DNA of 64,000 nt from Trypanosoma brucei (lineage: Eukaryota): NCBI GenBank assembly GCA_000002445.1, contig CH464491.1:288001-352000 (forward strand), written 5' to 3'. The notes below the pieces were generated by a model that ran no database searches, was not told the DNA's origin, and worked only from the letters and a program-made list of their open reading frames with translations. How positions within the stretch are numbered: the first letter of the stretch is position 1; each line of letters starts with the position of its first letter. Of this stretch, positions 6,001 to 30,400 are shown piece by piece. The position numbers and the translations under genes were made by a program.

Positions 6001-9000
6001 GAGTGCCGTTGAGTGAGCTTGAATTGGATAAGGATGAGAAGTTCAGCACCATGGAAGAGGAGCGTCGTAAGCTTATTGCTGAGGATCGTGAAGGTAATGC
6101 TGCACGCATTGCTGAACTAGAAGCAGCAATGAACGAGCATTCACATGAGCTTGCTAAACTGAAAGCATCCGATAGCCGCAGCTTCCTTGATCCTATGCCA
6201 GAAGGAGTGCCGTTGAGTGAGCTAGGATTGGATAAGGATGAGAAGTTCAGCACCATGGAAGAGGAGCGTCGTAAGCTTATTGCTGAGGATCGTGAAGGTA
6301 ATGCAACACGCATTGCTGAACTAGAAGCAGCAATGAACGAGCATTCACATGAGCTTGCTAAACTGAAAGCGTCATATAGCCGCAGCTTCCTTGATCCTAT
6401 GCCAGAAGGAGTGCCGTTGAGTGAGCTTGAATTGGACAAGGATGAGAAGTTCAGCACCATGGAAGAGGAGCGTCGTAAGCTTATTGCTGAGGATCGTGAA
6501 GGTAATGCAACACGTATCGCTGAATTAGAAGTTGCAATGAACGAGCATTCACATGAGCTTGCTAAACTGAAAGCATCCGATAGCCGCAGCTTCCTTGATC
6601 CTATGCCAGAAGGAGTGCCACTAAGTGAGCTTGAATTGGATAAGGATGAGAAGTTCAGCACCATGGAAGAGGAGCGTCGTAAGCTTATTGCCGATGATCG
6701 TGAAGGTAATGCTGCACGCATTGCTAGACTTGAGGAGAGGATGAACGAACTTTCCCGTGAACTCGCAAGAATGAAGTTGAAGGATCGCAGCTTCCTCGAT
6801 CCTATGCCAGAAGGAGTGCCGTTGAGTGAGCTTGAATTGGATAAGGATGAGAAGTTCAGCACCATGGAAGAGGAGCGTCGTAAGCTTATTGCTGAGGATC
6901 GTGAAGGTAATGCAACACGCATTGCTGAATTAGAAGCAGCAATGAACGAGCATTCACATGAGCTTGCTAAACTGAAAGCATCCGATAGCCGCAGCTTCCT
7001 TGATCCTATGCCAGAAGGAGTGCCACTAAGTGAGCTTGAATTGGATAAGGATGAGAAGTTCAGCACCATGGAAGAGGAGCGTCGTAAGCTTATTGCCGAT
7101 GATCGTGAAGGTAATGCTGCACGCATTGCTAGACTCGAGGAGAGGATGAACGAACTTTCCCGTGAACTCGCAAGAATGAAGTTGAAGGATCGCAGCTTCC
7201 TCGATCCTATGCCAGAAGGAGTGCCACTAAGTGAGCTTGAATTGGATAAGGATGAGAAGTTCAGCACCATGGAAGAGGAGCGTCGTAAGCTTATTGCTGA
7301 GGATCGTGAAGGTAATGCAACACGCATTGCTGAATTAGAAGTTGCAATGAACGAGCATTCACATGAGCTTGCTAAACTGAAAGCATCCGATAGCCGCAGC
7401 TTCCTTGATCCTATGCCAGAAGGAGTGCCGTTGAGTGAGCTTGAATTGGATAAGGATGAGAAGTTCAGCACCATGGAAGAGGAGCGTCGTAAGCTTATTG
7501 CTGAGGATCGTGAAGGTAATGCAACACGCATTGCTGAATTAGAAGTTGCAATGAACGAGCATTCACATGAGCTTGCTAAACTGAAAGCATCCGATAGCCG
7601 CAGCTTCCTTGATCCTATGCCAGAAGGAGTGCCGTTGAGTGAGCTTGAATTGGACAAGGATGAGAAGTTCAGCACCATGGAAGAGGAGCGTCGTAAGCTT
7701 ATTGCTGAGGATCGTGAAGGTAATGCAACACGCATTGCTGAATTAGAAGCAGCAATGAACGAGCATTCACATGAGCTTGCTAAACTGAAAGCATCCGATA
7801 GCCGCAGCTTCCTTGATCCTATGCCAGAAGGAGTGCCGTTGAGTGAGCTTGAATTGGATAAGGATGAGAAGTTCAGCACCATGGAAGAGGAGCGTCGTAA
7901 GCTTATTGCTGAGGATCGTGAAGGTAATGCAACACGCATTGCTGAATTAGAAGCAGCAATGAACGAGCATTCACATGAGCTTGCTAAACTGAAAGCATCC
8001 GATAGCCGCAGCTTCCTTGATCCTATGCCAGAAGGAGTGCCGTTGAGTGAGCTAGGATTGGATAAGGATGAGAAGTTCAGCACCATGGAAGAGGAGCGTC
8101 GTAAGCTTATTGCTGAGGATCGTGAAGGTAATGCAACACGCATTGCTGAACTAGAAGCAGCAATGAACGAGCATTCACATGAGCTTGCTAAACTGAAAGC
8201 ATCCGATAGCCGCAGCTTCCTTGATCCTATGCCAGAAGGAGTGCCGTTGAGTGAGCTTGAATTGGATAAGGATGAGAAGTTCAGCACCATGGAAGAGGAG
8301 CGTCGTAAGCTTATTGCTGAGGATCGTGAAGGTAATGCTGCACGCATTGCTGAACTAGAAGCTGCAATGAACGAGCATTCACATGAGCTTGCTAAACTGA
8401 AAGCATCCGATAGCCGCAGCTTCCTTGATCCTATGCCAGAAGGAGTGCCGTTGAGTGAGCTTGAATTGGATAAGGATGAGAAGTTCAGCACCATGGAAGA
8501 GGAGCGTCGTAAGCTTATTGCTGAGGATCGTGAAGGTAATGCTGCACGCATTGCTGAATTAGAAGCAGCAATGAAGGAGAATTNNNNNNNNNNNNNNNNN
8601 NNNNNNNNNNNNNNNNNNNNNNNNNNNNNNNNNNNNNNNNNNNNNNNNNNNNNNNNNNNNNNNNNNNNNNNNNNNNNNNNNNNTAAGCTTATTGCTGAGG
8701 ATCGTGAAGGTAATGCTGCACGCATTGCTGAATTAGAAGCAGCAATGAACGAGCATTCACATGAGCTTGCTAAACTGAAAGCATCCGATAGCCGCAGCTT
8801 CCTTGATCCTATGCCAGAAGGAGTGCCACTAAGTGAGCTTGAATTGGACAAGGATGAGAAGTTCAGCACCATGGAAGAGGAGCGTCGTAAGCTTATTGCT
8901 GAGGATCGTGAAGGTAATGCAACACGCATTGCTGAATTAGAAGCAGCAATGAACGAGCATTCACATGAGCTTGCTAAACTGAAAGCATCCGATAGCCGCA

Positions 9001-12000
9001 GCTTCCTTGATCCTATGCCAGAAGGAGTGCCGTTGAGTGAGCTTGAATTGGATAAGGATGAGAAGTTCAGCACCATGGAAGAGGAGCGTCGTAAGCTTAT
9101 TGCTGAGGATCGTGAAGGTAATGCTGCACGCATTGCTGAATTAGAAGTTGCAATGAACGAGCATTCACATGAGCTTGCTAAACTGAAAGCATCCGATAGC
9201 CGCAGCTTCCTTGATCCTATGCCAGAAGGAGTGCCGTTGAGTGAGCTTGAATTGGATAAGGATGAGAAGTTCAGCACCATGGAAGAGGAGCGCCGTAAGC
9301 TTATTGCTGAGGATCGTGAAGGTAATGCAACACGCATTGCTGAATTAGAAGTTGCAATGAACGAGCATTCACATGAGCTTGCTAAACTGAAAGCATCCGA
9401 TAGCCGCAGCTTCCTTGATCCTATGCCAGAAGGAGTGCCACTAAGTGAGCTAGGATTGGACAAGGATGAGAAGTTCAGCACCATGGAAGAGGAGCGCCGT
9501 AAGCTCATTGCTGAGGATCGTGAAGGTAATGCAACACGCATCGCTGAATTAGAAGTTGCAATGAACGAGTATTCACATGAGCTTGCTAAACTGAAAGCAT
9601 CCGATAGCCGCAGCTTCCTTGATCCTATGCCAGAAGGAGTGCCACTAAGTGAGCTTGAATTGGACAAGGATGAGAAGTTCAGCACCATGGAAGAGGAGCG
9701 TCGTAAGCTCATTGCTGAGGATCGTGAAGGTAATGCAACACGCATTTGTCGCTTGGAAAGGAAAATGGGGAGGCGTGTTGATAAGCTGGCTAAACTGAAA
9801 GCGTCATATAGCCGCAGCTTCCTTGATCCTATGCCAGAAGGAGTGCCACTAAATGAGCTTGAATTGGATAAGGATGAGAAGTTCAGCACCATGGAAGAGG
9901 AGCGTCGTAAGCTCATTGCTGAGGATCGTGAAGGTAATGCAACACGCATTGCTGAATTAGAAGTTGCAATGAACGAGCATTCACATGAGCTTGCTAAACT
10001 GAAAGCATCCGATAGCCGCAGCTTCCTTGATCCTATGCCAGAAGGAGTGCCACTAAGTGAGCTTGAATTGGATAAGGATGAGAAGTTCAGCACCATGGAA
10101 GAGGAGCGTCGTAAGCTTATTGCTGAGGATCGTGAAGGTAATGCAACACGCATTGCTGAATTAGAAGAGTGTATGAGTGCTCGAGTTCGGAATTTGGCTA
10201 TTTGTAAGTCTACTTTAGGTGGAGTGATTGTTGATGAGAGAATTGGTCTTGTTCCTTTGTATTTGTTACCGTTGGGGGAGGATTCGGTTTTGAGTTCGTT
10301 GACTTCTAAATTGGAATCTATGCGATGTGGTGGGTGTTTACCCGATAGTGTTGCTGTGCGTGATATCCAAGAACAAATTATATGTCGAGTAGAGAAATTG
10401 GCAGAAGTGTATTTAGAACATGAACTTGATTTTCTGGAAACTGTTGACGGAATTTCTGTTTCTCAGATCGCACTTTCTGATGACAAGGTGTTTTGTGAAA
10501 TGCAGCGGTCGTTGCGCCAGTTGAGAAAAAGTCCGGTAAGAAATGCAGAAGCCATACGGGATATTGAGTATGCGATGAATAATATCGTTCGTGAACTGTC
10601 GTCAAAACTATTACTGGAGGATTGTAGTTACCTGAATCAGTGTCCTCACGGCGTACCTCTTGCTGACTTACCGCTGGATAATCGGTTATTTCGCGAGATT
10701 GAATTGAAGAGAAGAAGATTAAAAGAGGATGACCCGTTAAAAAATGCGACGAGGATTAGAGAGTTGGAGATGAAATTGAATGATCATGCCGAGCGTTTGG
10801 CCGCGCTTATGTTAAGTGAGGAACGTGCTTTTCTTGAGCCATGCTCGCACGGTCTTCCCCTTAGTCGCCTTCAGTTGGGAGAGGATTCTTCCTTTCTTGC
10901 AATGGAAAGGGAAAGAAGGAAGTTATTGCGTGAAGGGGGTAAAGACAAAAACCGTATCAGGTATCTCGAAGAATGCATGAGGGAACATGTCAGCAATGTC
11001 GCCCTCTCTCTAATTTCCTGGCAGGATGTTCAATTTCATGAAGCTAACCATTCTGTAGCGGAGATGTGGCCGCGAATCGGTGAGTTGTACCCTGAAGGAA
11101 TCCGAAACTCTGTGTTTCCGGAAATAACACAGCCGGGCGATACTTCATCTGCGCCTGGTGAACTTGGCTATTTAGCACCTTTCATTGCCGCTCTCAGTCA
11201 ACACCCGCCTCTAATTCATCGGCTTCTGGAAACGAAAACACATCCCGTTAATGGTCCATATTCTTTCATCTTTTTTGATCCGAACAGCAACCCTGTTCGT
11301 GTTGACATTGATGACCGTGTGCCAGTGGATGCGAAGTGTGAGCCCAAGTTTACACGCGTGCCACACCGGTCTTGGTACCCGCTGCTGCTGGAGAAGGCAT
11401 ATGCGAAGTTTGTTGGTGGGTACGCAAAGCTCGACCAGTGCACACCACACGAAACCCTCCATGACCTAACGGGCCGTCCAGTGACACATATCCCTTTTGA
11501 TGAGAAGCGAGCAGATGGAATCAAAATTGGGGACTTCCGATCTGTGAAATTCTGGAAGGGGATTAAAAGGGATCTTGCGGCTGGAGATGTTATTATGGCA
11601 ATGACGAACGGTAGTGTTCCCGACGGCCTTCACTCTCAATGTAGTTACGCTCTCCTTAGTGTAATCGAAACTGTGCATGAATCGAATGATGTCTCTGACA
11701 TCGTGATCAAATTACACAACTGCTACTACGATAGCCCGACATACGACGGCCCACTGTGTAACGATGATGATAACTGGACCGATGGTTTGAAGAGACTTTG
11801 CCATTATAATCCTGAGGAGGATGCACTTTACATACCTGTTCCTGTGTTTCTGCGTAACTTCTCGAGCATGCAGCGCTGTCACATAAACTGTGGCGACCGT
11901 CTGACTGCGCCTGGTGAGTGGACTGGGGTAAGCTGTGGAGGAAACCCGAAGTTCACAACTTTCCGGAACAACCCCATCTATCTTGTGGAAAACAAAACCT

Positions 12001-12914
12001 CCCGTCCCGTTACCATTCTTGCTGAGCTGCGGCATCAAGCCCCTGTGTTTTTTGATGCCGATGGGGTAAATCACTATCATCAGTCTGGGCTGGCGCTCTT
12101 ACAGCAGCATCATGTTTCTGAAATTATTACGTGGCTCCTTACTAGTACGACGCACCGCTTTTTGCAAAAAGGTATTTTAATGGATACACGCGAGATTTGC
12201 TCAAGGATGGAAATACCTCCGAATACCACGTGCTATCTCGTCCCATATACGTTGAAGCGAGGTAGCTACGGCAAGTTCAATGTGTCGCTGTATCCTGCAT
12301 CTTCTGACATTACTTTGGTCCCTTTGGCTGCTTTGTGTAATTCGCACGTGGTAATTAACGTTGATGTTTTGCTGAAACCGGGGAGCCGGGAGGGGAGAAG
12401 AGTCGACTTTTCGGTGCACGAAGCTTGTGATGTACACTTGCTGCTGCATCAGAATAAAATTACTGACCCTGCTAGTGTCAAAAGGGGTAACCTCCTTGCG
12501 GAGGACGAGGTTTCTATGTCTGTTAATGACGAGCGGATGTCAGTCCTGGCGACCACTCGTGACACCTCCAATGCGCGTGAGCAGTCCTTGGCTTTGGAGC
12601 TTCCAACCGCTGGTCGGTATTCCGTTTTTATTGAGTGCCGAAGCCGACTCAGAACTGGTGAATGTCCTTGTACTTTGTCTATATATTCGCCGAGCCGCGC
12701 CAAAACCAGGTTGGCTCCCCTTCCGCCTAGTGGGACGCAATCGGTACTTCCAGCAATTGCACCTCGTCAGCCTCCCCGGCAGCCCGCACTTTATGGGAGA
12801 AGGTTGGATCAGCCTCCTCTCAGTGCAGGCACGGTGAGGGCCGCCGCTGCTACGCTTCCTGTAGGCTTAGTTCCAGCACCTCCAAAGTCCGGCACGACAC
12901 CGCAGCGTAGATGA
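1..12914 (+). CDS. ClpGM6: Giant calpain-like cytoskeletal protein with 68-aa GM6-type tandem repeats (5' partial; reading phase begins at nt 3, first in-window Met codon at 9). At least 50 near-identical 68-aa units, then 4 degenerate units (10173-10990) and a C-terminal calpain-like module (10990-12914).
   Basis: Single 4301-codon ORF in the supplied track. 204-bp period read directly (MNEH Met codons at 9, 213, 417 ... 8571, then 8745 ... 9969). The C-terminal part has calpain domain II/III-like sequence (WYPLLLEKAYAKF, KLHNCYYDSPTYDGPL, GGNPKFTTFRNNPIYLV). A 68-aa repeat plus calpain-like ends matches the published description of T. brucei ClpGM6/GM6 antigen. The symbol is assigned from memory, not from a search. 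Confidence 0.8.
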   Translation, partial: AAMNEHSHELAKLKASDSRSFLDPMPEGVPLSELELDKDEKFSTMEEERRKLIAEDREGNAARIAELEAAMNEHSHELAKLKASDSRSFLDPMPEGVPLSELELDKDEKFSTMEEERRKLIAEDREGNAARIAELEAAMNEHSHELAKLKASDSRSFLDPMPEGVPLSELELDKDEKFSTMEEERRKLIAEDREGNAARVAELEAAMNEHSHELAKLKASDSRSFLDPMPEGVPLSELGLDKDEKFSTMEEERRKLIAEDREGNAARIAELEAAMNEYSHELAKLKASDSRSFLDPMPEGVPLSELGLDKDEKFSTMEEERRKLIAEDREGNAARIAELEAAMNEHSHELAKLKASDSRSFLDPMPEGVPLSELELDKDEKFSTMEEERRKLIAEDREGNAARIAELEVAMNEHSHELAKLKASDSRSFLDPMPEGVPLSELELDKDEKFSTMEEERRKLIAEDREGNAARIAELEAAMNEHSHELAKLKASDSRSFLDPMPEGVPLSELELDKDEKFSTMEEERRKLIAEDREGNAARIAELEAAMNEHSHELAKLKASDSRSFLDPMPEGVPLSELGLDKDEKFSTMEEERRKLIAEDREGNAARIAELEAAMNEYSHELAKLKASDSRSFLDPMPEGVPLNELELDKDEKFSTMEEERRKLIAEDREGNAARIAELEAAMNEYSHELAKLKASDSRSFLDPMPEGVPLNELELDKDEKFSTMEEERRKLIAEDREGNAARIAELEAAMNEHSHELAKLKASDSRSFLDPMPEGVPLSELELDKDEKFSTMEEERRKLIAEDREGNAARIAELEAAMNEHSHELAKLKASDSRSFLDPMPEGVPLSELELDKDEKFSTMEEERRKLIAEDREGNAARIAELEAAMNEHSHELAKLKASDSRSFLDPMPEGVPLSELGLDKDEKFSTMEEERRKLIAEDREGNAARIAELEAAMNEHSHELAKLKASDSRSFLDPMPEGVPLSELGLDKDEKFSTMEEERRKLIAEDREGNAARIAELEAAMNEHSHELAKLKASDSRSFLDPMPEGVPLSELELDKDEKFSTMEEERRKLIAEDREGNAARIAELEAAMNEHSHELAKLKASDSRSFLDPMPEGVPLSELELDKDEKFSTMEEERRKLIAEDREGNAARIAELEAAMNEYSHELAKLKASDSRSFLDPMPEGVPLSELELDKDEKFSTMEEERRKLIAEDREGNAARIAELEAAMNEHSHELAKLKASDSRSFLDPMPEGVPLSELELDKDEKFSTMEEERRKLIAEDREGNAARIAELEAAMNEHSHELAKLKASDSRSFLDPMPEGVPLSELELDKDEKFSTMEEERRKLIAEDREGNAARIAELEAAMNEYSHELAKLKASDSRSFLDPMPEGVPLSELELDKDEKFSTMEEERRKLIAEDREGNAARIAELEAAMNEHSHELAKLKASDSRSFLDPMPEGVPLSELELDKDEKFSTMEEERRKLIAEDREGNAARIAELEAAMNEHSHELAKLKASDSRSFLDPMPEGVPLSELELDKDEKFSTMEEERRKLIAEDREGNAARIAELEAAMNEHSHELAKLKASDSRSFLDPMPEGVPLSELGLDKDEKFSTMEEERRKLIAEDREGNAARIAELEAAMNEYSHELAKLKASDSRSFLDPMPEGVPLSELELDKDEKFSTMEEERRKLIAEDREGNAARIAELEAAMNEHSHELAKLKASDSRSFLDPMPEGVPLSELGLDKDEKFSTMEEERRKLIAEDREGNAARIAELEAAMNEHSHELAKLKASDSRSFLDPMPEGVPLSELGLDKDEKFSTMEEERRKLIAEDREGNAARIAELEAAMNEHSHELAKLKASYSRSFLDPMPEGVPLSELELDKDEKFSTMEEERRKLIAEDREGNATRIAELEAAMNEHSHELAKLKASDSRSFLDPMPEGVPLSELELDKDEKFSTMEEERRKLIAEDREGNAARIAELEAAMNEHSHELAKLKASDSRSFLDPMPEGVPLSELELDKDEKFSTMEEERRKLIAEDREGNAARIAELEAAMNEHSHELAKLKASDSRSFLDPMPEGVPLSELGLDKDEKFSTMEEERRKLIAEDREGNATRIAELEAAMNEHSHELAKLKASYSRSFLDPMPEGVPLSELELDKDEKFSTMEEERRKLIAEDREGNATRIAELEVAMNEHSHELAKLKASDSRSFLDPMPEGVPLSELELDKDEKFSTMEEERRKLIADDREGNAARIARLEERMNELSRELARMKLKDRSFLDPMPEGVPLSELELDKDEKFSTMEEERRKLIAEDREGNATRIAELEAAMNEHSHELAKLKASDSRSFLDPMPEGVPLSELELDKDEKFSTMEEERRKLIADDREGNAARIARLEERMNELSRELARMKLKDRSFLDPMPEGVPLSELELDKDEKFSTMEEERRKLIAEDREGNATRIAELEVAMNEHSHELAKLKASDSRSFLDPMPEGVPLSELELDKDEKFSTMEEERRKLIAEDREGNATRIAELEVAMNEHSHELAKLKASDSRSFLDPMPEGVPLSELELDKDEKFSTMEEERRKLIAEDREGNATRIAELEAAMNEHSHELAKLKASDSRSFLDPMPEGVPLSELELDKDEKFSTMEEERRKLIAEDREGNATRIAELEAAMNEHSHELAKLKASDSRSFLDPMPEGVPLSELGLDKDEKFSTMEEERRKLIAEDREGNATRIAELEAAMNEHSHELAKLKASDSRSFLDPMPEGVPLSELELDKDEKFSTMEEERRKLIAEDREGNAARIAELEAAMNEHSHELAKLKASDSRSFLDPMPEGVPLSELELDKDEKFSTMEEERRKLIAEDREGNAARIAELEAAMKENXXXXXXXXXXXXXXXXXXXXXXXXXXXXXXXXXXKLIAEDREGNAARIAELEAAMNEHSHELAKLKASDSRSFLDPMPEGVPLSELELDKDEKFSTMEEERRKLIAEDREGNATRIAELEAAMNEHSHELAKLKASDSRSFLDPMPEGVPLSELELDKDEKFSTMEEERRKLIAEDREGNAARIAELEVAMNEHSHELAKLKASDSRSFLDPMPEGVPLSELELDKDEKFSTMEEERRKLIAEDREGNATRIAELEVAMNEHSHELAKLKASDSRSFLDPMPEGVPLSELGLDKDEKFSTMEEERRKLIAEDREGNATRIAELEVAMNEYSHELAKLKASDSRSFLDPMPEGVPLSELELDKDEKFSTMEEERRKLIAEDREGNATRICRLERKMGRRVDKLAKLKASYSRSFLDPMPEGVPLNELELDKDEKFSTMEEERRKLIAEDREGNATRIAELEVAMNEHSHELAKLKASDSRSFLDPMPEGVPLSELELDKDEKFSTMEEERRKLIAEDREGNATRIAELEECMSARVRNLAICKSTLGGVIVDERIGLVPLYLLPLGEDSVLSSLTSKLESMRCGGCLPDSVAVRDIQEQIICRVEKLAEVYLEHELDFLETVDGISVSQIALSDDKVFCEMQRSLRQLRKSPVRNAEAIRDIEYAMNNIVRELSSKLLLEDCSYLNQCPHGVPLADLPLDNRLFREIELKRRRLKEDDPLKNATRIRELEMKLNDHAERLAALMLSEERAFLEPCSHGLPLSRLQLGEDSSFLAMERERRKLLREGGKDKNRIRYLEECMREHVSNVALSLISWQDVQFHEANHSVAEMWPRIGELYPEGIRNSVFPEITQPGDTSSAPGELGYLAPFIAALSQHPPLIHRLLETKTHPVNGPYSFIFFDPNSNPVRVDIDDRVPVDAKCEPKFTRVPHRSWYPLLLEKAYAKFVGGYAKLDQCTPHETLHDLTGRPVTHIPFDEKRADGIKIGDFRSVKFWKGIKRDLAAGDVIMAMTNGSVPDGLHSQCSYALLSVIETVHESNDVSDIVIKLHNCYYDSPTYDGPLCNDDDNWTDGLKRLCHYNPEEDALYIPVPVFLRNFSSMQRCHINCGDRLTAPGEWTGVSCGGNPKFTTFRNNPIYLVENKTSRPVTILAELRHQAPVFFDADGVNHYHQSGLALLQQHHVSEIITWLLTSTTHRFLQKGILMDTREICSRMEIPPNTTCYLVPYTLKRGSYGKFNVSLYPASSDITLVPLAALCNSHVVINVDVLLKPGSREGRRVDFSVHEACDVHLLLHQNKITDPASVKRGNLLAEDEVSMSVNDERMSVLATTRDTSNAREQSLALELPTAGRYSVFIECRSRLRTGECPCTLSIYSPSRAKTRLAPLPPSGTQSVLPAIAPRQPPRQPALYGRRLDQPPLSAGTVRAAAATLPVGLVPAPPKSGTTPQRR
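9..10172 (+). repeat. In-frame tandem array of a 204-bp unit (two 201-bp variant units), about 50 copies, interrupted by a 100-N gap
   Basis: Unit boundaries phase exactly at 204-bp steps from 9 to 8571. After the gap, phase restarts at 8745. Units are more than 97% identical even at synonymous sites. Confidence 0.95.
8584..8683. other. Assembly gap (100 N) inside the repeat array. The true copy number is unknown.
   Basis: Run of n. Repeat phase is discontinuous across it. The last unit before the gap reads MKEN instead of MNEH, which suggests a low-quality contig end. Confidence 0.95.
11021..11875 (+). repeat. Dispersed near-identical coding block shared by the three calpain-like genes. Copy A of three, with copies at 32005-32859 and in part at 36318-36960.
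   Basis: Direct nucleotide comparison, e.g. caggatgttcaatttcatgaagctaacc at 11021 and at 32005. catcccgttaatggtccatattctttc at 11233, 32217 and 36318. Identical antisense ORFs in the track (11216..11524, 32199..32591, 36250..36690). Confidence 0.9.
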
Positions 12915-15462: not shown

Positions 15463-18400
15463 ATGAATTACCAAGCAATTACCGAAATTCCAGATAGCAA
15501 TACGATATTCCATGACACCATTTTTATGAGAAACAACAAACACGTCTCGGAGCAATGGATTCGTATTGGCGAATTGTACCCCAATGGTGCGAAGGAATCA
15601 TTGCTCCCGGAGACGTTTGCACGCGAACAGTTCGGACAAGGAAGTCACTATGAGTGCTTCATGCTTTCTGCCCTCGCCACTTTAGTAAAATTCCCCGACA
15701 TCATTCGGAACTGCTTCGTGTCGAGGAATGTGCGGCGTGACGGGAGGTACACTTTTCAGTTCTTTCGTGACAAGGAATGGGTGAAGGTTGAAATTGATGA
15801 CTCTGTTATGCTTGAGGATGATGAAGTTTTGTTCATCCGATCACCCACTAGTCATTGGTGGCCGCTACTGTTTGAGAAGGCTTATGCGAAATTCTACACC
15901 AGCTACGACAATTTGGAGGGTTGTACCTTACAGGAGGCGTACCATGACTTAACTGGCAACCCCGTGCTCAACATCCCCATGGACGCGAGGCTTGCCAAGG
16001 CTGCAGGTGTGGATGTGACTGGAGGTCAGTATTGGCTTGACCTCGCACAGAAGCTGCAATCCGGCCAGTTTGTTGGTTCGCTGCTGACGAGGGAAACGGA
16101 CCTTGAGTCGATGGGCTTGCAGAGTGAGCAACAATACGGGATACTAGAGATTTTTTCGCTAACTGGGACATCATCTGTAAGCGACATTGTGATTCACCTA
16201 TACAACCCATTCGAGGACGAGGAATTCACGTACAAAGGCCCGCTGAACAGTAAGGACACGGAGTGGACCCCCAAACTCCGTGAAAAGTATAACGTGGATG
16301 ATACGCACTCCATATTTCTTCCGCTACACGTTGCCCTGAAGATCGTAAATTCGGTGCAACTTTGCTACATATCCCCTATTGATGGTGACGCGACGTATTT
16401 TGATGATGAGTGGAAGGGTGAAACTGCGGGAGGGAACCCCACGAGTGTAACATGGCGCAAGAACCCCCTATACTGCGTCAGGAACGCTGGGATCAACCCC
16501 GTGGAACTGGTTGTCGTGATTAAGCAGAAGGATCAACGACGTTACATGTCTTCTGAGGAGCGAACCATGTACCTTCAATGTGGCATTGTTGTTGTTCAGA
16601 GTACCACAGTCACACAAATACCGACATATTTTGTAACAGGGAACAATCACAAAGCAATACACAAGAGTTTGTTCCTAAACTCTCGTGAAGTGTCCAGTTT
16701 CGTTCGGATACCACCTAATTCCTTGTGCTACCTTGTACCTTCTTGCATGAAGAAGGGAGCGGAGAGTGCATTTACGCTCGCACTGTACCGAGTGAAACTT
16801 CAAGACTACAGCAATATTCTGATTAAGAAACTTGAGGTCCCCTCTATGGATTGGGGACATTGTGCCATTGGAAAGGTTACGTTGGAAACAAAAGTGAAGG
16901 AACGGGTTGATTTTTTTGTTGACTGCCCTACTGACATTCACATTTTGATGCATCAAGAAAAACCGTTTGTGAACAAAGTTGGTGGTGATATTACAACTCG
17001 GGATTACGTTGGTGTCTACCTTTATGATGACACGGACCGTAAGATTGGAGGTGTGCACGCTGCGACGAATTTCAGGGAAACAAGTGTCTTGCATCGCCTT
17101 CCTCGTAGTGGTCGTTATGCTATTTCAATTACGTGTCCCCGGGCAAGTGGTGAAGTACCCATTGCTCTCACAATTGTTGGTTCTCCTGATGCTAATGTTC
17201 GTATTGTTGAGGCTCCTGATGATGCCTCCATGTTTGATGATGAGGATGATATTGCAGAGGGTGATGAGGATGCTACTGTTTCTAATCCCATTGACTACAT
17301 TCCTGTTGCTGGTGGAGGGCAGGTGTTCACTGAGGTACCCGATAGTACGGTCCCATTTGAAGATAAACGTTTCATGGTTGATAATAAGATTATGACGAAT
17401 GAACCGTGGATCCACATTGGTGACCTTTATCCTGAGGGAAAGACGCGCTCACTTTTGCCGGAGCGTCTGAGTCGTGAGCAGTTTGAGCAGGGTGAACACT
17501 TCGAGTGCTGTTGTCTGACCGCTTTTGCAGCGCTGGTGGAGCACCACCCCAACGTAATTCGTGACGCGTTTGTGACGAAGGCTGTACGACGTGACGGACG
17601 GTACACGTTCCGGTTCCACCGCTACGGTCAGTGGGTGAAGGTGGAGATTGATGATCGTATTCCCCTTCTTGGTGGGAAAACTTTATTCTGTCGATCATCT
17701 GATGGTTATTGGTGGCCACTACTACTAGAGAAGGCGTATGCTAAGTTCTACACACTATACCAAAATATTGAGGGATGTACGCTGCGGGAACTGTTTTACG
17801 ACCTAACAGGGCTTCCTGTGCTTAGCATTCCGATGGAGTTGAAACTCGCGAAGGCTGTACTGTGTGATGTTGATGATGTGAGTTTTTGGGTTGAGCTCAG
17901 TGAGGGTCTGAAGGATTGTGCGTGTGCTGCCGTTGCACGCCCCGGTTTCGATGACACCCTTGGTTTGTCCAATGGGCAAGAGTACGCTGTCCTTGATGTG
18001 GTATCGTTAACGGATGGTGAGGCCTCTTCCATATCTGATCTTGTTGTAAAACTTCATAATCCGTTTCTGGAGACTGAGTACAAAGGCCCTATGAATGCAA
18101 GCGATGCTGCGTGGTCGTCTGAGCTGCGTACCCGTCTATGTCCGGAGCGACGGGATACTATCTACATTCCCGTGGAAGTTTTCTGCAATGCATTTCTCAC
18201 TGTGGAGAAAGTTATGGTGCGTGGTCTTATTGTTCCCGGGTGGCAATTCAACAGTGAATGGGGTGAGGGCACGAACGGTGGCAATCCAACACTTGTGACG
18301 TGGCGTGAGAACCCCATTTACGTTGTGCAGAACACTGCGGATACCCCGTTACAGATTATTGCAATGATTGGGCAACCTGATCAGCGTCGCGTGCTACACC

Positions 18401-21400
18401 TTCTCCCCGAGCAAGAGGTAAACTATGTTCAATGTGGGTTGGTTCTTTCTCAGTGTACATGTAGCAATCCTGTACCAACATATTTGGTGACGAGTAACAA
18501 CCATCGTGTTGTGCACAAGGGTCTGTTCGTGAACTTTCGTGAGTCGGCGAATATTGTTACCATTCCAGCTAACTCTATGTCGTACCTAATTCCAAGCGCG
18601 ATGTTTCGTGACAAAACGAAGTTTCTTCTCTCATACTGGTTTCAAAAATTGCCTGACATGAAATTTATCAAAATCAGTCGTATCAATGTGAGTGTTGCGC
18701 GGTCACTACCTGCAATTGAGCACCTTGAGCTGCATAACCATGAAAAGAAACGCGTGGATTTTCTGGTTGATGTTCCCACTGATATTCACATTCTGCTTCG
18801 TCAGGAGAAACCTTGTGTGACGGTCCGTACGCACGATGCTATGGCTGATGACTTCCTAGGGATATATCTGTACAACGAGGATGAAAAGCGTATTGATGGT
18901 GTGACCGCTGCGACGAACTACAGGGAAATGGGGCTTGTTCACCGGCTTGCCACTGCGGGGAGATACGCTCTGTCGATCACGTGTCCTCGGGGAACCGGTG
19001 TTGTGCCGTGCCGTGTGGAGATCGTTGGCGTGGAAGATGCGAAGGTGCGTATCACCGACCCACCTGAGGATGCTGGTAATCTGTGTGAGGTTGACCTTCG
19101 CTTTCTGGGTTCTGAAGCTGAGGGTGTGCCTCTTGAAGACCTTCCGCTCGATAGTGACGCCGATTTGCAAGCTATATTGGAAGAACTGAGACGCCTGCAC
19201 GGAGACATTGATGCGAATGCTGAGCCAATTGCAAAACATGAGAGGATGATGAGTGACCGAGTTCATAAGATGGCGAGGCAGCTTCTTGCTAAGGATCGTT
19301 CGAAGTACTTACCAGGATACGATCTTCAAACGGTTAATTCCATACTTGACGCGGAGCCACATTTTGTCGTTTTAGAGCGCGATCGGTACCACCTAAAGGG
19401 TGATCCCAGGAATGCCACGAAGGTTCGGAATGTAGAGAGAAGCCTTCTTACTCTCGCTAATGAAATTCTGGAAAAACACGATGACCCTGACTTATCTTTC
19501 CTTGGAGCCGAGGTGGAAGGAATTCCCACCCTGGATCTCACTCTGATGAGCGACTCTTCATTTTCTGAGATGGCACGTGAGCGCATGCAATTAAAGCGGG
19601 ATCCCATTGCTAATGCGAGTCGTTTGGCTGAGGTTGAAGATAGTATGGTGGCACGTGCGAATGCTATTGCCAAGGAGATGCATTTGAGAGAGCGGCGATA
19701 TCTGAACCCTGAGCCTGAGGGTGTCCCCCTTGAGTTGCTTCCTTTAAACGAGGACGAAGTTGTGAGTGAGAAGGAGGACCGCCTCCGTGCGCTGAATCGT
19801 AAGGAGCGAAAAGACGAGAAACTGTTACGGAGTCTTGAGGACGTGATAGCGGACCGTGTACACGAGATCGCGAGGGAGCTGAAGCTGAGTGAACGTGATC
19901 TGTTCCTTGATCCCACTCCAGGAGGTTTCCCTGTAGCGCAGCTTCCGCTGGACGAAGACGATGTGTTTCATTCACTCGAAGTGGAGCGACTGCAACTGCG
20001 ACTGCGTCAGGATTCCCTTGCGAATAAGACATCAGAGATCAAAGAACTTGAAAGTTGGTTGAACCGTCGAGCGTGTGAACTTGCGCGTGTGAAGGTAGAG
20101 GAGGGTCGAGCGTTTCTAGACCCTGAACCTCTGGGGTTCCCACTTACCGACCTTAACCTTGACGGAGATAGTGAGTTTGTCAAGCTGGAATCGGAACTTC
20201 GTAAGTTGCGTTGGGAGCCGCGTGTGAACAGCACTGCTATGAGGACTGTGGAGGAGGATATTGCTCGCGTTGTATACCGCATAGCACTGAGGAAAACGTG
20301 TCTCGATCGTGACTATCTTGACGCGGAATATGAGGGTCGACCTGTGCAGGGGTTGCCTCTGAATGATAGTAAGGAGGTGCTTGCGATGGAGACGAGGCGC
20401 CGGGTGTTAATTAACGCGAAGGCTGACCGTGACGAAATCGGTGTTGCAGAGAATATGATACGTGATGCTGTGCGTGAGATCGCTCGCGCTCTGAATGTGG
20501 GCGAGCGCTTGGACTACTTGGAGCCATGCCCAAGAGGTGTCCCTGTAGAAGACCTCCCCCTTGACATGGATACGGAATTCCACGAGCTTGAGGTGCATCG
20601 GCAACGTCTCAAGTGTGATGCGAAGAAACAGGACACAGTAATAATGGATGTGGAGCGTGCACTGAATGATCGTGCGGAAGCCCTTGCGAGGGAGCACTTG
20701 TCGAGTGACCGTGGTTACTTGGACCCAGCATCTGTTGGTGTGCCGCTTCGTTTGCTACCACTTGATAGCGATAGTGTGTTCCAGGAGCTTGAAATTAAAC
20801 GTGCGCTACTGAAGAAGAACCCTCAGAGGAACGGACGTGCCATCTCGGCTTTGGAGGGTGGCCTGAACGAGCGTGCACACGTTCTTGCTACGGAAATGAA
20901 GCACGCGGAGCGATCGAAATTTATGGACCCTAACCCTGGTGGTATTGCCATTGAGGATGTTCCTATTGATAACGACGAGGTTTTTTGTGATCTTGAAATT
21001 CGTCGGTTTGGTTTGTGCGAGGACCCGCATGCTAATATAGCAGCGATACGAAATCTTGAAGATGCGATGAATGAGAGGGTGATCGAACTGGCTGATAAGA
21101 TGCGTTGTGAGATCCGCATGTTTCTGGACCCGATGCCATTGGGGGTGTCCTTAGATGAGCTGCCCCTTGACAATAACGAGAGCTTTGTTGCGAAAGAAGC
21201 TGAACTGCACAAGCTTCGGAAGGACCTGCGGGCAAATGGTGCCGATGTTGCTTTGCTGAAGTCTGACTTGAACGAGTTAGCCAAGCAGATGGCGGCGGAG
21301 ATGATTTCTAAAGATCGTGCTTTTCTCTTCCCTGAGCCTGAGGGTCGTCTACTGGAGGAATTGCCTCTAGATAGCGATAAGGAGTTTCGTTCTCTTGAAA

Positions 21401-24400
21401 AGCAACTACGGCTTCTTTGTAAGGAGTCTCCTCCTGAGGCACAGAAAATTGCTGCCATTGAGGAGTTGCTGGATGGTCGTGCGCATCAGCTTGCTAAAAT
21501 GAAGAACTGTGCGGAGCGGAAGGATTACCTGATTTCTCACCCTTGTGGTGTACCTTTGGATGATGTGCCACTGGACAATGACGATGAATTTTCGATGCTT
21601 GAAGTGAAACGAGCTGCGCTAATGCGTGACGTGGTGGGTAACAAGGACTCAATTGCCAGTGTGGAGAAGGCCCTGAATGGGCGAGCGGAAAAGCTTGCGT
21701 TGTTAAAGTTGCGTAGTGAGAGGTCGTTTCTCGATCCTGAGCCTCATGGCATCCCATTGCATTGTGTACCTCTTGATGATGATGATAACTTTCATTTGCT
21801 AGAGGTGGAGCGCTTGACATTGAAGGGTCTGAACATTCGCGAGAATGATCGTAAGTTGGTGGGTGTGGAAAATGCCATGAGGGACTACGTGAATGATTTA
21901 GCCCTTGAGGTGAAGCGAAAAATGAGAGAGGATGTTCTTGACACCTCACCTGATGGTCTTCCGTTGTCGGTGCTTCCTCTTGACAATGACTTACCGTTTA
22001 TTGAGTTGGAGAATGGATACATTAAAGCTGTTTTTGATGCTAAGGATACTTTGAAAATCCAGGACCTTGCAGGGGCGATGCGAAGACGTTCTGAGGACAT
22101 AGCACGTAAGCTGCGAAGTGATGTGAGGTTATCTCTCGAGCAACACCCACTCGGCTTTACTCTAGACGAGCTTCCCGTTGACGATAGTGAATTATTCTTG
22201 GGAAAAGAAAGGGAACTTCTAGAGTTGAAGCAAGATGGAAGATACAATTCCCCAACTGCTATTGAAATCATGGAGGAGCTTAACAGTATCATTTTGGACA
22301 TTGCCAAAGAACAAGCAATTAGAGAGCGCGAATTCCTTGACCAAGAACCGGAAGGTCGACATATCACTGAGTTGAATCTCGATAGCGATACGACATTCCT
22401 CGGGTTAGAAAGGCAGAGGAGATTACTCAAGAAGGATCCGTTTGCTGATCGCAGTAGGATTGTAGACTTGGAACAAATGCTTAACGATCGTTCGCACGAA
22501 CTGGCGAAAAAGCTCAACTCCCTAGATCGACCTAAATTCCTTCCCGTCGCCATACGTGGTGTGTTACTGTCTGAACTTCCCCTTGACAGCGATGCTGAAT
22601 TTACCCGACTTGAAGTTGAGCGCAGCTCTCTCTATCGCGATCCCGTACGAAACGCATCAACAATAAACCATGTGGAGGAAGCCTTGAATATCCGAGTAGC
22701 GGCTATGGCCGACGAAGTTGTCCGCCAGGATCGAATGTTCTTGGGCGAGGATGTTGAAGGTGTTTGTGTGCGTCACTTACCTCTTGATGATGACGCAGAG
22801 TTTCGTGCCCTAGAAACCAAGAGGGCGACATATAAAAGTTGTGGTTCTCGCATGGGCACGAAGGCTATCAAAGACCTTGAGGATCAGCTGGGAGATCGTG
22901 CAGCTGAGCTCGCCCGCACTGCAAAGAAGGAACTTCGCAACCTTCTCGGTACAGAACCCCTTGGTGTCCCACTCAGTGATCTACCAATTGATGTGGATGG
23001 TCGGTTTCGTGCGCTTGAAGACAATTATCGTGATCTTTCTCGTAACTCTGCGAACGGAGGGAAGCTTTGTGAGATTATTCTACAGTTGAACGAACGTGCG
23101 CTTGAACTGGCGGCGGAGTTGCACACCAAAGAGCGAGTTGTGCTAAGTCAATGTCCTGGAGGTATTCCACTGTCTGCACTTGCGCTGAATGAAGATGAAA
23201 TGTTCAAAGCTCTCGAAACGGAAGCTCGGAAGCTTAGGCATAGTACTGCTGGTCGAGGTCGCAACGCCGCTCGTATTTCTGAACTTGAGAGCGCGATGAA
23301 TGAGCGGGCGATGGAACTGGCGAACCAGTTGCGTAGGACATACTGCGACGCCGCTCCTGAGGGGATTCCACTGGAGCTACTTGGCTTGGGAGGGGTGGAG
23401 GAGTTTACGAAACTTGAAGATGCCTTGCGTGATGCGACGAAGGACCCCGTGAAGAATCGTGAGATAATAAGTGACATTGAGTTTGAACTGAACAGCCGTG
23501 CACACGTTGCTGCGATGGGACTTCTGGAAGGCGACCGCGATTACCTTGAATGTGAAACCATGGAAGTACCACTTTCTGATTTGCCTCTGAATACGGACAG
23601 TGTTTTTCGTGCGCTTGAGGTGGAGCGAGCGGTGCTGAAGTTGAGAGAACCTCACCGTGGCGCTCGTAGAGTCCGGGAGTTGGAGTTGAAACTCGTCGAG
23701 CGTGCTCACAGGCTTGCGGAAGAACTGAAAGAGGAGGATCTGAGTGGTCTTGATGGTGAGCCTGAGGGTGTATCATTACGTGCACTGAAACCACACAACG
23801 ACTCTTTGTTCAGTGAGTTTGTTGGAGCGATGCGAAAACTGAAAAGGGGACCGAAGAGAAACACTGTTGCTATTGAGGAATTGCGGGAGCGTATGAACGA
23901 GCGTGCGCACGAGTTGGCACAGGAAAAATTGAAGGATGACCGGGAGTTTCTGGATCAGTGTCCGGAGGGTGTTCCGCTTAGTGACCTTCCCTTGGGTACA
24001 GATCCTCTTTTCCACAAGCTGGAGACGGAACGCGCGAGGTTGAAGGAGCGTGACGCTGCTCGGAACATAACCCACATCCACGAACTTGAGAGTCGTCTGA
24101 AGGAGCGCGCAGTTGAGCTGGCAAATGAACAGAAAGGTCGTGATTTGAGCGAACTGGAGCAGTCGCCGTGCGGCGTGCCTATATATATCCTGCAGTTACA
24201 CGATGATCCCGTGTTGCAGAAGATGCTGAACAAAATGCGTGGATTGAGGAACCGCGGCGTCACTGGTCCCGAGTTTGTCGCACTCATTGATGAAATAAAC
24301 AACTGTGCGAGGGACGCTGCCGAGGAGCTACTGCTGCGGGACCGTGAGTACCTTGAACCTGAACCTCTCGGTGTACCACTGAGCCTTCTATCACTCACAA

Positions 24401-27400
24401 CGGACACTGTGTTTCATGGTCTGGAAGTGCAGCGTGCGGTGCTCAAGGCGCAAAATGCACGTCGGAACGCAGCGAAGATTTCTGATTTTGAGATGCGTTT
24501 AAATGAACGTGCTGTGCAACTGGCAGAAGTGCAACGGCAGCGGGAGCTGGAGGGGCTTGATCCCGAACCTGAGGGTATTCCTATATCTGTGCTTAATCCT
24601 CACGGAGATGTGGAATTTATTAAGCTTGTAACTGAGTTGCGTCAATTGTGTAGTGAGGGCAATAATGAGGGCATGTGTGATGTGCTGAAGACCACGATGA
24701 ACGACGTTGTGCATGCTCTGGCGAAGCGATTGAAGGAGGGAGATCGTGGCTACCTCGACCCTGAGCCCGAGGGTGTTCCGCTGTGTGTGCTGCCGTTGGA
24801 CACTGATGTGTTGTTTTTTAGGCTAGAGTGTGAACGTGTGACTCTGAAGGCACGTAATGCGCACTTAAACGCGAGGAGAATATGTGAGTTGGAGGACGCA
24901 CTCAATAACCGTGCAGTGGAACTTGCTCGCGAGCAACTGCGGCAGGACGTTAATGGTGTGGACGAGGCGCCGTGCGGTATTCCTCTGCAGCTGCTACGAC
25001 TTCACGAGGACAGTACCTTTCTTGTGATGGTGGATGATATTCGCACCCTAAGGAAGAATCCGGATGCTAACAGCGAGGCGATTGACGCCGTTGTCATGTC
25101 CATGAATGATCGCGCCTATGACGTTGCGATAGCTCAATTTGACCGTGGTTTCCTTGATCCTGAACCCGAGGGCGTTCCATTATGTATTTTGCCACTGGAT
25201 GACGATGAGTTGTTCCATGGTATGGAGGTGGAGCGGATTAAACTGAAGCTTACTGATGCGCGTCGCAATGCGCAGACGATTGGCACACTGGAGGAAGAAA
25301 TGAATGGCCGCGCACACGAACTCGCATTGCAGCAGTTGCGTGAGGAGCTTTCCGGTATTGATGCGGCACCTGAAGGCATTCCCTTGTCATTGTTGAGGGT
25401 GATGGAAGACCCTGCCTTTGCACTGATGGTGCTGGAGTTGCGTGACCTCAAGAAGGGCACCCAGGGTAATGCGGAACGGATTCGGGAGGTGGAGGACGCT
25501 ATGAACAACCGCGCTTACGAACTCGCGGATGGGCTGCTGGAGGGTGATCGCAGCTATCTAGACCCTATTCCCCTCGGCGTACCCGTCTCGGAACTTCCCT
25601 TGTGTTCCGACGAACCGTTTGCCACTATGGAGGTTGAACGAGCGAGGTTGAAGGCCGAAGACGCACGACGGAATGCAGCAGGGATTGGAGAACTTGAGTT
25701 GAAACTTAACAACCGCGCGAAGGAACTTGCGTCTGAACAACTATTACGTGATTTGGAAGGATTCCACGACGAGTATGAAGGGATTGACCTTGCGCACCTG
25801 AGGCCACACGACGACAAAGAATTTGTCTCCCTTGTACCGGAATTACGGAGGTTGAAAAGAGATGGTGACAAGGAAGCTGTTGAGCAACATATGCGCAGCA
25901 TGGATAGGCGCTTACGTGAGCTTGCGAAAGAGCTTGTTGGTGGTGATCTTTGGTTTCTTGACAAGGAACCGGAGGGTGTTCCCTTGACGTACTTACCTTT
26001 GGATGGGGACGAGATTCTCGACAAATTGCGCCATGAACGAGCTCAACTAAAGATACAAGATCCGCGGGGGAATGCTGACAGAATTGCGGAACTTGAGAGG
26101 AAAATGAATGAACGTATTCATGATCTAGCGAGGTGTATAGGAGATGAGGATTTTGATGGTGTTGAGGGAGAGCCTTGTGGCATTCCGTTGAGTTTACTCT
26201 CTCCTAGAGATGATGAGGTTGTTGCAAAACTTATCAATGACATTCGTAAAGTGAAATATTCTACAGGGGAGAAAAGCTCGAATGGTGCGCTGAATAACTT
26301 GCAGGTTGAACTTAGCAAACGTGTACACCAACTAGCAGAGGATGTTTTAATAAGAGACAGGGTGAAGTACCTAAACCAGTGCCCAGAAAGTGTTGATATA
26401 TCTTTTCTTCCCCTTAGTACTGACGAACAGTTTCGTGCCTTGGAGTTGGAGCGGGTCATTATTAATATCCAATCGAACGGTGACGACAAACGTTTGGACG
26501 GCTTAGAAGATATGCTTAACAAGAGAGCGCATGAGCTTGCAAAGGAACAGCTGCAGGAGGACCTAAGAGGACTGGAACAGGCTCCCCATGGTGTTCCACT
26601 TGACGTTCTTAAACCCCACAGCGACTTACGATTCATTAAAGAGGCGGAACAGCTACGGAACTTAAAAAGAGACCCGCTTCGTAATAAGAGGGAGATAGAT
26701 GACCTTGTGGAGCAAATGAATAATACTGTTGGTGAACTTGCCCTGAACTTACTACGTAGCGATCGTGACTACTTGCATTTGGCTCCTGAGGGAGTACCGA
26801 TTGAAGAGCTTCCACTGGAGGTCGATGCAAAGTTTTGTGCTTTGGAGGCGGAGCGTGCAATGTTAAAAGGCGAGAACAACCCGAAGAATGCGAGTATGAT
26901 ATTATCTTTGGAAGAGAAATTAAATGAGCGTGCTCGCCAGCTGGCTCAAGAGCAACTACTGGAAGACCTGAAGGAATTGAGTTCTTTTCAGCATTGTGTT
27001 CCTCTCTCACTTTTATCGCCTCATACTGACGTTCAGTTTGCTGCTGATGTTGCTGAATTTCGACGACTGAAAAAAGAAGGGGAGCAAAACACCCCTGCCA
27101 TTCAGGGCGTTGTCGGGAGACTTAACGCACGTGCGAATGAGCTCGCGGAAGAGTATTTGCGTACCGATCGCGCATCGTATCTTAACCCTGAACAACTTGG
27201 TGTGCCACTTGACTTGCTATCTTTGGACACAGACTCTGAGTTCGTGTCACTGGAAGCTGAGAGGCTAAAATTGTTGTCCTATCCGGCGGTTAACAATGAG
27301 CAAATAACTCGTTTGGAAGCTGAGTTGAATGCATGTGCCAAAAAATTGCTTGTTAAAAGATTGTATAAAGAAAGGAATTATCTGGATAGGGATCCACTTG

Positions 27401-30400
27401 GCGTGTCTCTGAATGCTTTACCTCTTGATACGGATTCGCAGTTTCATTTCATGGAGCTGAAGCGGTTGGCTTTGAAGGCAGGAGATCCCTGTTGTAATGA
27501 AGTCGCAATCAATACTTTGGAGGAGAGATTGAGTGACCGTGCATACGAGTTAGCAAGGGGGCAAATTGCGGAAGACTTGAGTGATCTGATAAGTGCTCCC
27601 AGGGGTATCCCGGTGAGTCTCCTTCATCCCCATAATGATCCAGAGTTTCATGAGATGGTTGTTAGTGTTCGACTGTTAAAGAGGGATTCTCAACCTGATC
27701 TATCGAAACTTATGAGGCTGGTCGATGACCTGAACAGGAGGGTAAAGGAGCTTGCAGACTGTGCTGTAGGTACATGCCGGAGAAAACTCAACCCACTCCC
27801 GGATGGTATACCCCTGCAGTCGCTTCCCCTAGATGAAGATCCATTATTCAGTCAGATGGAGCGTGATCTCGTTTCATTGTTCCTTGAAGATGAGAAAAAG
27901 AATGCCACTCGGATAACTAAGCTGGAGGACCGCCTCAATGAACGTGCGGCGAACATTGCTGTCTCTGTAAAGGCGAAGGATTTGGAGCAGTTGGAACAGA
28001 CGCCTTGCGGCATACCTATTGAGCTTTTAAGGCCCCATGAGGATTCAACTTTCGCCTCACTGGCAAATCAATATCGCATTTCCAAGCACCTGGGGGGGAG
28101 TGATTCACACGGCGTGAATGTTGGAACCCTGAACAAAAGGGCTACGGAAATAGCCATAGAGCTTCTGAGGGGCGATCAGAGTTACATTGATCGTCAACCT
28201 TGTGGGGTTCCTTTTTCCGCTTTGGAATTGGAGAAGGATCCCCAATTCCGCGACTTGCAAGTTCAGCGGATGAGGATGGTACTTTCAAATCCGAAACGCA
28301 ATCTCAACAGAATAACTGAACTTGAGGTACAACTTAACTCGTACGTTCAGAGGTGTGCGCAGGCGTTCTTGGCTGCTGATCGTGGATTTGTTGACAAAGA
28401 ACCTGGGGGTGTACCGCTCGCGGAGCTAGACCTTGACAATGATCCTCTCTTTCATCGAATGGAGGTAGAACGAGCAAAGTTGAAAATAAGAGAGCCAGTC
28501 ATCAACGCCTATCGGATACGTAATCTGGAGGAAAAATTGAACGATCGCGCTCATGAGTTGGCAGAGGAATTGTTGGCCACTGACCTTGAGGGAATTGCGC
28601 CCGAACCCGAGGGAGTTTTGTTGGCTTCCTTGCACCCGCACGACGATGCCGAATGTGCCTCCCTCATCGCCGCAAAACGGCGGTTGCTAAAGGAACCGTC
28701 CCAAAACATGGAAAAGATTAGGGACGTTCAGGAAAAGTTGAACAACCGCGTGTTTCAGTTGGCAAGGGAGGTAATTTCCAAGCTCCGTAAACAGTTGGTT
28801 CAAGAGCCGGAGGGGATTCCGCTGGAATTCTTACCGCTTGACGCAGATAATACATTTCGCAGCATGGAGAGAGATCTCCTTGCCTTGCAAGCTACTCCTC
28901 GACGTAATGATATTAAAGTGGAGACCTTGAGGGGGAGTCTGAACGAACGCGCGTGCGAGTTAGCAAGGGGTCAAATACAATGTGGCCGTGGATTCCTTAA
29001 CCCACAACCGGAGGGTGTTGATCTCGAGCACCTTCCCCTTGATGAAAATGTGGTGTTTCGAAGCAAGGAGGTAGAAAGGACCAAACTCAAAAGGTGCCCT
29101 CACGAAAATGCAGCCGCTATTACGCAGCTAGAAAGTGATCTGAATGCCCTCGTACACAGCATCGCAAAAGACATAAAATTATCAGACCGTGCATTTCTGA
29201 ACCTAACGTCACACGGTATCCCGAGGGAATTGCTACCACTTGATGAGGATCGGAGCTTCACGACGATGGAACGTCGGCGAAGGAGACTGAAACGTGACGG
29301 CAACCGTAGGGCCACTGCAATGATGAATCTGGAGGAAATGATGCAGGATCGTGTAGATGACTTGGCTTTTCGCATTTTGCGAGGGGATCGGGGTAACTAT
29401 GTCACTCTTCCTGATGGGATTGACGCAGCAGACATTCCTATAGATACTGATGAACGTTTCGGAACCTTGGAGTTGAGGCGCGCAGTCGTAATGTTACAGG
29501 GTTCGGATGATTGCAAGGAACAAGTGGGGAAGTTGGAGCACCAGATGAGCGAGCGACTACAAGAATTAGTCAGGAAGCGGGTAAAAGAAGACAGAGATTT
29601 CCTTGATCCGGAACCTGAGGGCATTCCATTGAAGGATATTCCACTTGACTCCGATGCCGAGTTTAGGCATCTTGAGGCGCGAAGAAGAAAAATCCGTCGC
29701 GAATCGCGTCGTCGAGTAACTAATGTCGCCGATCTGGAGGAGGCTATGAATGATCGCGCACATGTACTTGCAAGGTGTATCGTCGCTGAAGATGTCGGGC
29801 ACCTTCGGCCTGATTACCGAAGGATTCCAACCAACGAGCTGCATCTTCATAACGATGACACGTTTAGGTCACTCGCTAGCAAACGTCGGGAGCTGCTACA
29901 GGTGGGCGCAGTCACCGTTGATATTGCTGCCATCGAAGACGATATGGACATCCGGGCGCTGCAGGTTGCTGATGATGTAGTAGCGGAGGAACGGGCCTTT
30001 TTAGACCCACAACCCGGGGGCATGTTTATTGTTGACTTGCAGCTCGATGAAGATGAAACATTCTTTGCACTTGAGCGTGAGCGGCGGAGGATGAGAAAGG
30101 ATTTCCGTTTCGCTAAGCGGAACAAGGAGGCCATTAACGACCTTGAAGTCAGTCTTAATGAACGTGCTTGTGAATTGGCAAGGGAGGCGTTTTCAAAACA
30201 ACGCGATTTCATGGATCAGGAGCCCGAAGGTATTCCTCTAAAGGAGCTGCCTCTTGATAATGACTTGATTTTTAAAGATGCTGAAATTTCTCGATACGTG
30301 TTGTTGAAGGATCCAAAACATGCAGCGAATGAATTAATTGCCTTCGAAAACGTCATGAATTGTCGGGCGCATGAGCTAGCGAAGGAGATCATTGCAAAAG

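Follow-up and report, generated by a model that had tools for sequence, protein, structure and literature searches.

Most kinetoplastid calpain-like proteins (groups 1-2) contain a single CysPc domain (Branquinha et al.; Ennes-Vidal et al., 2021). According to the same reviews, the proteins of group 4 (Ersfeld et al., 2005) have three copies of domains II+III, two at the N-terminus and one at the C-terminus, and the H49/calpains with central repeats are assigned to this group. The H49/calpain XP_809993 (XM_804900) of T. cruzi contains two N-terminal CysPc domains, repeats of 65-68 amino acids (aa) and a C-terminal CysPc followed by domain III (Galetović et al., 2011; PMC3214072). H49/calpains localize to the flagellum attachment zone (FAZ) and are reported to be devoid of proteolytic activity, as data not shown (PMC3214072). 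A 2020 survey of T. cruzi lists a 519-kDa protein encoded on chromosome 39 with an architecture that ends in "CysPc, RPT2, CysPc, CBSW". In T. brucei, ClpGM6 (Tb927.11.1090 + Tb927.11.1100) has calpain-like domains without the catalytic triad in both terminal regions (Hayes et al., 2014; PMC4121973). Like H49, it is a cytoskeletal protein of the FAZ region, and it is a well-studied regulator of trypanosome morphology. Here, we analyze a giant gene located downstream of ClpGM6, referred to as gene 2, in a 64,000-nt stretch of T. brucei brucei TREU927 chromosome 11 (the window, to which all coordinates refer).

In our view, gene 2 very probably encodes a degenerate-repeat paralogue of ClpGM6 that belongs to the group 4 (ClpGM6/H49) family, bears an ancient pair of pseudoprotease modules (A and B) and would serve as a giant cytoskeletal scaffold. 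The core of the calpain superfamily (MEROPS C2 / CysPc) is recognizable in gene 2 by both sequence and fold. Modules A and B are complete at the N-terminus; the C-terminal module C is present and cut by an assembly gap, and a complete C module is located in the fragment that follows this gap (Table 1). Gene 2 also contains the array of 65-68-aa DUF7623 repeats characteristic of group 4 and of ClpGM6 and H49. No difference from group 4 was identifiable, as far as this group is known through the summaries in the reviews. The architecture is already known: it was published in 2005 and 2011, and is the standard layout of the subfamily.

The closest counterpart is found in T. cruzi. Like gene 2, XP_809993 combines two N-terminal CysPc domains, degenerate repeats and a C-terminal CysPc with domain III, the triad is only partly conserved, and the gene is clustered in tandem with a paralogue whose repeats are homogenized. 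The T. cruzi protein is 4,571 aa long with 24 annotated repeats, compared with at least 5,798 aa and 64 units for gene 2. Judged from their architecture and degenerate repeats, the two proteins are putative orthologues. Similar to gene 2, ClpGM6 contains DUF7623 repeats and the same type of C-terminal module, of which the first 858 nt are 95% identical at the nucleotide level (32002-32859 in gene 2, 11019-11876 in gene 1); this comparison concerns the C-terminal part of ClpGM6, as its N-terminus lies outside the window. ClpGM6 is predicted to possess modules A and B as well, given that at least 4,960 nt precede its repeats (PMC4121973). In contrast, the ClpGM6 repeats are epitope-bearing 68-mers of 90-100% identity, whereas the units of gene 2 are epitope-free and have a mean pairwise identity of 31.6%.

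The epitopes allowed us to tell the two genes apart. The two peptides used to raise the anti-GM6 antibody, KASDSRSFLDPMPE and ERRKLIAEDREGN (Hayes et al., 2014; PMC4121973), occur 44 and 47 times in gene 1, the upstream neighbor, which identifies gene 1 as the C-terminal fragment of ClpGM6. A count in the translation of gene 2 gave 0 copies of either peptide, and gene 2 is thus a paralogue and not ClpGM6 itself. The C-terminal gene model of ClpGM6 is given as Tb927.11.1100 in the TrypTag paper. As gene 2 is the first gene past this model, it is probably Tb927.11.1110 / Tb11.47.0035, directly downstream of ClpGM6. Tb927.11.1110 is termed a calpain gene in one paper, and for Tb11.47.0035, which is annotated as a calpain-like cysteine peptidase, two peptides amount to 0.4% coverage; this implies a protein of ~6,000 aa, which fits gene 2. 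Two ORFs (open reading frames) further downstream match T. brucei proteins exactly, namely RSP3 (= Tb927.11.1150) and EAN79099.1, a TREU927-specific sequence. The original prediction had thus pointed to the correct species and chromosome.

Modules A and B align end to end in BLASTP with 46% identity and 65% positives (580 columns, 12 gaps, 521 bits, E=0.0), a similarity well above chance. Within aa 1-1266 of gene 2, Pfam recognizes Peptidase_C2 with 240 bits over two stretches (the cut-off for PF00648 is 23.8 bits) and one Calpain_III; in the scan of the gene 2 translation, these are followed by the DUF7623 repeats and a C-terminal Peptidase_C2. Module A matches human m-calpain 1kfu with E=2e-20 (phmmer). 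The AlphaFold2 model of this module, built on a 12-sequence per-module alignment, has a mean predicted local distance difference test (pLDDT) score of 90.3 and consists of an α/β core, a β-sandwich and a second β-sandwich. In Foldseek, it matches the large subunit of m-calpain (3bow) with E=1e-22 and a probability of 1.00 over ~500 columns. EF-hand families were absent from all Pfam scans, and the region after domain III is modeled as an all-β sandwich, not as a penta-EF-hand domain IV. Based on the three-part model and the match to m-calpain, each module represents a complete non-classical calpain unit, in which the second β-sandwich replaces the penta-EF-hand domain. Module B has the same three-part layout, by full-length homology to A. 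The motif GGNPTxVTWRxNPxY, which the original prediction had taken for the end of the modules, is located at aa ~322-337 and marks the start of domain III; each module extends ~250 aa beyond it.

Between the modules lies an acidic linker. Among the residues around it (aa 576-630, n=55), 16 are D/E and 1 is K/R. The motif PEDAxMFDDEDxIxEGxD…NPIDYxP is common to the linkers of T. melophagium, T. congolense, L. donovani, Angomonas and the sequence P0004. Judged from these sequences, the conservation of the linker exceeds what a passive spacer needs, and the motif (MFDDEDxIxEG…NPIDYxP) could instead provide a docking site. A related PPEDAG motif is also present after module B (19060-19100).

The central part of gene 2 consists of repeats. 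An iterated hidden Markov model (HMM) seeded on GM6 units identified 64 back-to-back units that run uninterrupted from aa 1214 to 5508, and Pfam finds DUF7623 in 26+37 = 63 stretches. The units are 63-73 aa in length, mostly 65-70. Within units 22-45 (~23400-28100), a weak super-period of two units is observed, as the identity at lag 2 is 37.9% vs 29.8% at lag 1; here, canonical LDPEPEGVPL…LPLDxD units alternate with variant …PxGIPLxxLxPHxD… units. Most of what had originally been described for this part of the locus is borne out by these data. Two complete calpain-like modules are present in tandem at the N-terminus of one ORF, as supported by BLASTP, Pfam and clean sequence, both peptides quoted from them occur in the translation, and the acidic linker and the approximately 60 repeats are found as described. 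The identity between the modules had been put at about 50%, close enough to the value measured here.

Table 1. Features of gene 2 and its surroundings in the window (nt positions; aa numbering according to gene 2).
Feature	Position	Strand	Evidence
Gene 1, upstream neighbor, ClpGM6 C-terminal fragment	9-12914	+	GM6 peptides; Pfam 53 DUF7623 + Peptidase_C2
Gene 1 (ClpGM6) C-terminal calpain-like module	11019-12713	+	
Gene 2 ORF	15463-32967	+	ORF list, translation
Module A (aa 1-584)	15463-17214	+	Pfam, phmmer, AlphaFold2, Foldseek
Module A CysPc (aa ~1-302)	15463-16368	+	Pfam Peptidase_C2 aa 20-301
Module A calpain domain III/CBSW (aa ~306-444)	16378-16794	+	Pfam Calpain_III aa 314-442
Module A second β-sandwich (aa ~452-582)	16816-17208	+	AlphaFold2 model; without Pfam match
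Acidic linker A/B (…PDDASMFDDEDDIAEGDEDATVSNPIDYIPV…)	17215-17319	+	Translation, cross-species motif
Module B (aa 620-1199)	17320-19059	+	BLASTP to A; Pfam Peptidase_C2 116.5 bits
64 contiguous degenerate repeats, Pfam DUF7623 (GM6/H49 type)	19102-32001	+	Iterated HMM, Pfam
Gene 2 module C, partial CysPc ending at gap	32002-32859	+	Pfam Peptidase_C2 E=9e-21
100-N assembly gap	32860-32959	.	N-run list
Post-gap fragment: 647 nt duplicate, 12 unique DUF7623 units, complete C module, true stop	32960-37993	+	
Complete C-terminal module of post-gap fragment	36101-37804	+	Pfam

The 3' end of gene 2 is affected by the assembly. In the whole window, runs of N are limited to 8584-8683 and 32860-32959, with a single N at 33011. 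The TAA stop codon of the gene 2 ORF (32965-32967) is located two codons past the second of these runs; as it is read straight out of the Ns, it is not the real end of the gene, and the length of 17.5 kb given in the original prediction is an assembly artefact. The third module that was placed in the same polypeptide is likewise affected: a C-terminal calpain-like module is present, but it is cut by the gap, which had been missed.

Both sides of the gap consist of duplicated sequence. The segment after it (32960-33605) is 99.5% identical over 647 nt to 26631-27277, corresponding to units 38-41 of gene 2, and the 638 nt before it (32222-32859) are 100% identical to 36321-36958 in the C module of the post-gap fragment. 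This fragment may be the 3' part of a third paralogue, of which the 5' half was lost in the gap and the C module was homogenized with the others by gene conversion, or it may be the product of mis-joined or collapsed contigs; the duplicated flanks are compatible with either explanation. The three C-terminal modules form a mosaic (11019-12277, 32002-32859, 36321-37359). Between gene 1 and the post-gap fragment, the identity is 88.8% over a segment of 1,050 nt, the first position of which coincides with the onset of the 100% match of gene 2 to the fragment. This pattern in the sequences suggests gene-conversion tracts with a shared breakpoint. The other 100-N gap (8584-8683) is located inside the GM6 repeat array of ClpGM6, consistent with the published collapse of the ClpGM6 repeat region in TREU927 (PMC4121973). 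The orthologous gene on L. donovani BPK282 chromosome 27 (FR799614.1; 14569-18781 of the extracted locus) is also interrupted, by three 99-N gaps just past its first repeats; assembly of this gene family is thus incomplete in more than one reference genome.

In module A, Cys65 and Asn248 align with the catalytic Cys and Asn of m-calpain (phmmer), and the position of the catalytic His is occupied by Gln223; His is absent from the corresponding segment of module A in the phmmer alignment to human m-calpain. Similarly, the triad columns of the module alignment show that module B has kept the Cys and Asn, with a His to Gln replacement. Gln occupies the His column of both modules in the Trypanosoma orthologues, and also that of the A modules of L. 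donovani and Angomonas deanei (Ldon_A and Adea_A); the catalytic Cys and Asn of modules A and B are kept in all species in the alignment. The C modules have lost the catalytic Cys as well as the His, leaving only the Asn. As a complete Cys-His-Asn triad was found in none of modules A, B, and C, all three are predicted to be calpain-like pseudoproteases and not peptidases in a strict sense, in agreement with published work on ClpGM6 (PMC4121973) and H49 (PMC3214072).

Retention of the Cys and Asn, together with a CysPc fold that is predicted with high confidence, could be taken to mean that modules A and/or B are active cysteine peptidases that use a substitute general base. We consider this very improbable, as the His is replaced by Gln in both modules while a single-module relative (P0007) keeps it; moreover, the H49/calpains are reported to be inactive (data not shown; PMC3214072) and ClpGM6 is described as lacking the triad (PMC4121973). 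P0007 (1,287 aa, from an ENA metagenome) has one module of this three-domain type, in which C, H, and N are all present, with DHGY at the His column. Judged by its sequence, P0007 may be an active protein that forms an outgroup to the pseudoprotease modules of trypanosomatids.

The pseudoprotease modules A and B are shared well beyond T. brucei. When aa 1-1200 of gene 2 were searched against a collection of 5.8 billion proteins, relatives covering 100% of the query were found in T. melophagium (66% identity) and L. donovani (56%), and partial relatives in T. congolense, T. conorhini, Angomonas deanei, and others; full-length giant proteins of T. brucei or T. cruzi were not returned by this search. 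According to Pfam, the full-length relatives contain two Peptidase_C2 stretches followed by DUF7623, and module A, linker, and module B follow one another in the same order in T. melophagium, T. congolense, L. donovani, and Angomonas. Module A of T. brucei is 70% identical to the A module of T. melophagium, 63% to that of L. donovani and 49% to that of Angomonas, compared with 40-47% to any B module and 30-33% to the C modules. In a neighbor-joining tree, the A and B modules form separate clades that each include Trypanosoma and Leishmania, and in the case of the A clade also Angomonas. As these clades span species, the duplication predates the trypanosomatid radiation. On the evidence of the sequences, it took place before Trypanosoma, Leishmania, and Angomonas diverged, and constraint has acted on both copies ever since.

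The original prediction had considered the architecture unusual, and stated correctly that calpain-like proteins in kinetoplastids mostly have one module per protein, which applies to the single CysPc of groups 1-2. A recent, T. brucei-specific duplication would fit with this rarity, but is highly improbable: the A and B clades each span Trypanosoma and Leishmania, the identity between A and B within T. brucei (46%) is lower than that between A modules across genera (49-70%), and publications on the architecture date from 2005 and 2011. The layout is that of group 4, and the duplication is common to Leishmania and Angomonas. It is equally improbable that two neighboring single-module calpain genes were fused into the tandem by an error of assembly or sequencing; the locus is hard to assemble, with two 100-N gaps, segments duplicated at 99.5-100% identity and collapsed repeats reported in the literature for these genes, but the sequence from 15463 to 32859 is free of Ns, stops, and frame changes, including inside and between modules A and B, an assembler cannot confuse two modules that are only 46% identical in protein and give no nucleotide match among those of at least 300 nt in a self-BLASTN of the window, and the A-linker-B order and the linker motif recur in five species whose genomes were sequenced independently. 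The collinear orthologues effectively rule out that a sequencing error joined two genes, the finding that had been named beforehand as able to overturn the tandem.

How a ClpGM6 paralogue with these features might function can be envisaged from its modules and repeats and from the published work on ClpGM6 and H49. By analogy, the non-catalytic modules would act as protein-binding end-pieces, with A and B each providing a separate platform for binding at the same end, and the 64 repeats (~4,300 aa) would form a long spacer or rod between the end modules. The protein as a whole would then be a giant cytoskeletal scaffold, plausibly located at the flagellum or the FAZ.

Several points weigh against this interpretation of gene 2. 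Modules A and B still have the Cys and Asn, which makes residual or altered chemistry possible. Domain III of module B is not recognized by Pfam alone, and follows from the homology to module A. Three modules in one polypeptide are not demonstrated in the TREU927 assembly, owing to the gap in module C, though they are supported by the complete XP_809993 of T. cruzi. The identifier of gene 2 was assigned by gene order and coverage arithmetic, and not by a direct match to a record. Finally, localization or phenotype data for Tb927.11.1110 were not found in the literature searched, and its FAZ or cytoskeletal role is proposed by analogy.

As the triple-module layout with a repeat core is already in the literature, the value of the locus as a discovery is small. 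Its practical value lies in the annotation: the gap truncates the gene 2 model, which shares an identical C-terminal module with the fragment that follows. In work with the TREU927 gene models, for instance in RNA interference design, tagging, or the mapping of proteomics data, the 3' end and the number of paralogues are therefore best regarded as provisional. Besides this gene-model problem, the Pfam-orphan β-sandwich and the conserved acidic linker motif are useful by-products of the analysis. It is possible, though rather doubtful, that three points taken together are undescribed: the build of each group 4 module as a three-domain unit, in which the last β-sandwich resembles the distal C2-like domain of calpain-7, which would hint at a PalB-like ancestor of the family; the A/B linker as a docking site; and a third giant paralogue with its 5' half in the gap at 32860.

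Some minor features of the locus were also observed. On the minus strand, antisense ORFs of 211-234 aa are present inside the repeat arrays (20823-21458, 21885-22553, and 34168-34872). They most likely result from the biased composition of the repeats and are not genes. For gene 1, Pfam also gave matches to PKcGMP_CC, XhlA, and Vir_act_alpha_C; none of these had a stretch that passed alone, and they were set aside as repeat or coiled-coil noise. After its C-terminal module, ClpGM6 ends in a Pro/Ala-rich, low-complexity tail of ~65 aa (12714-12911; …LAPLPPSGTQSVLPAIAPRQPPRQP…PAPPKSGTTPQRR).

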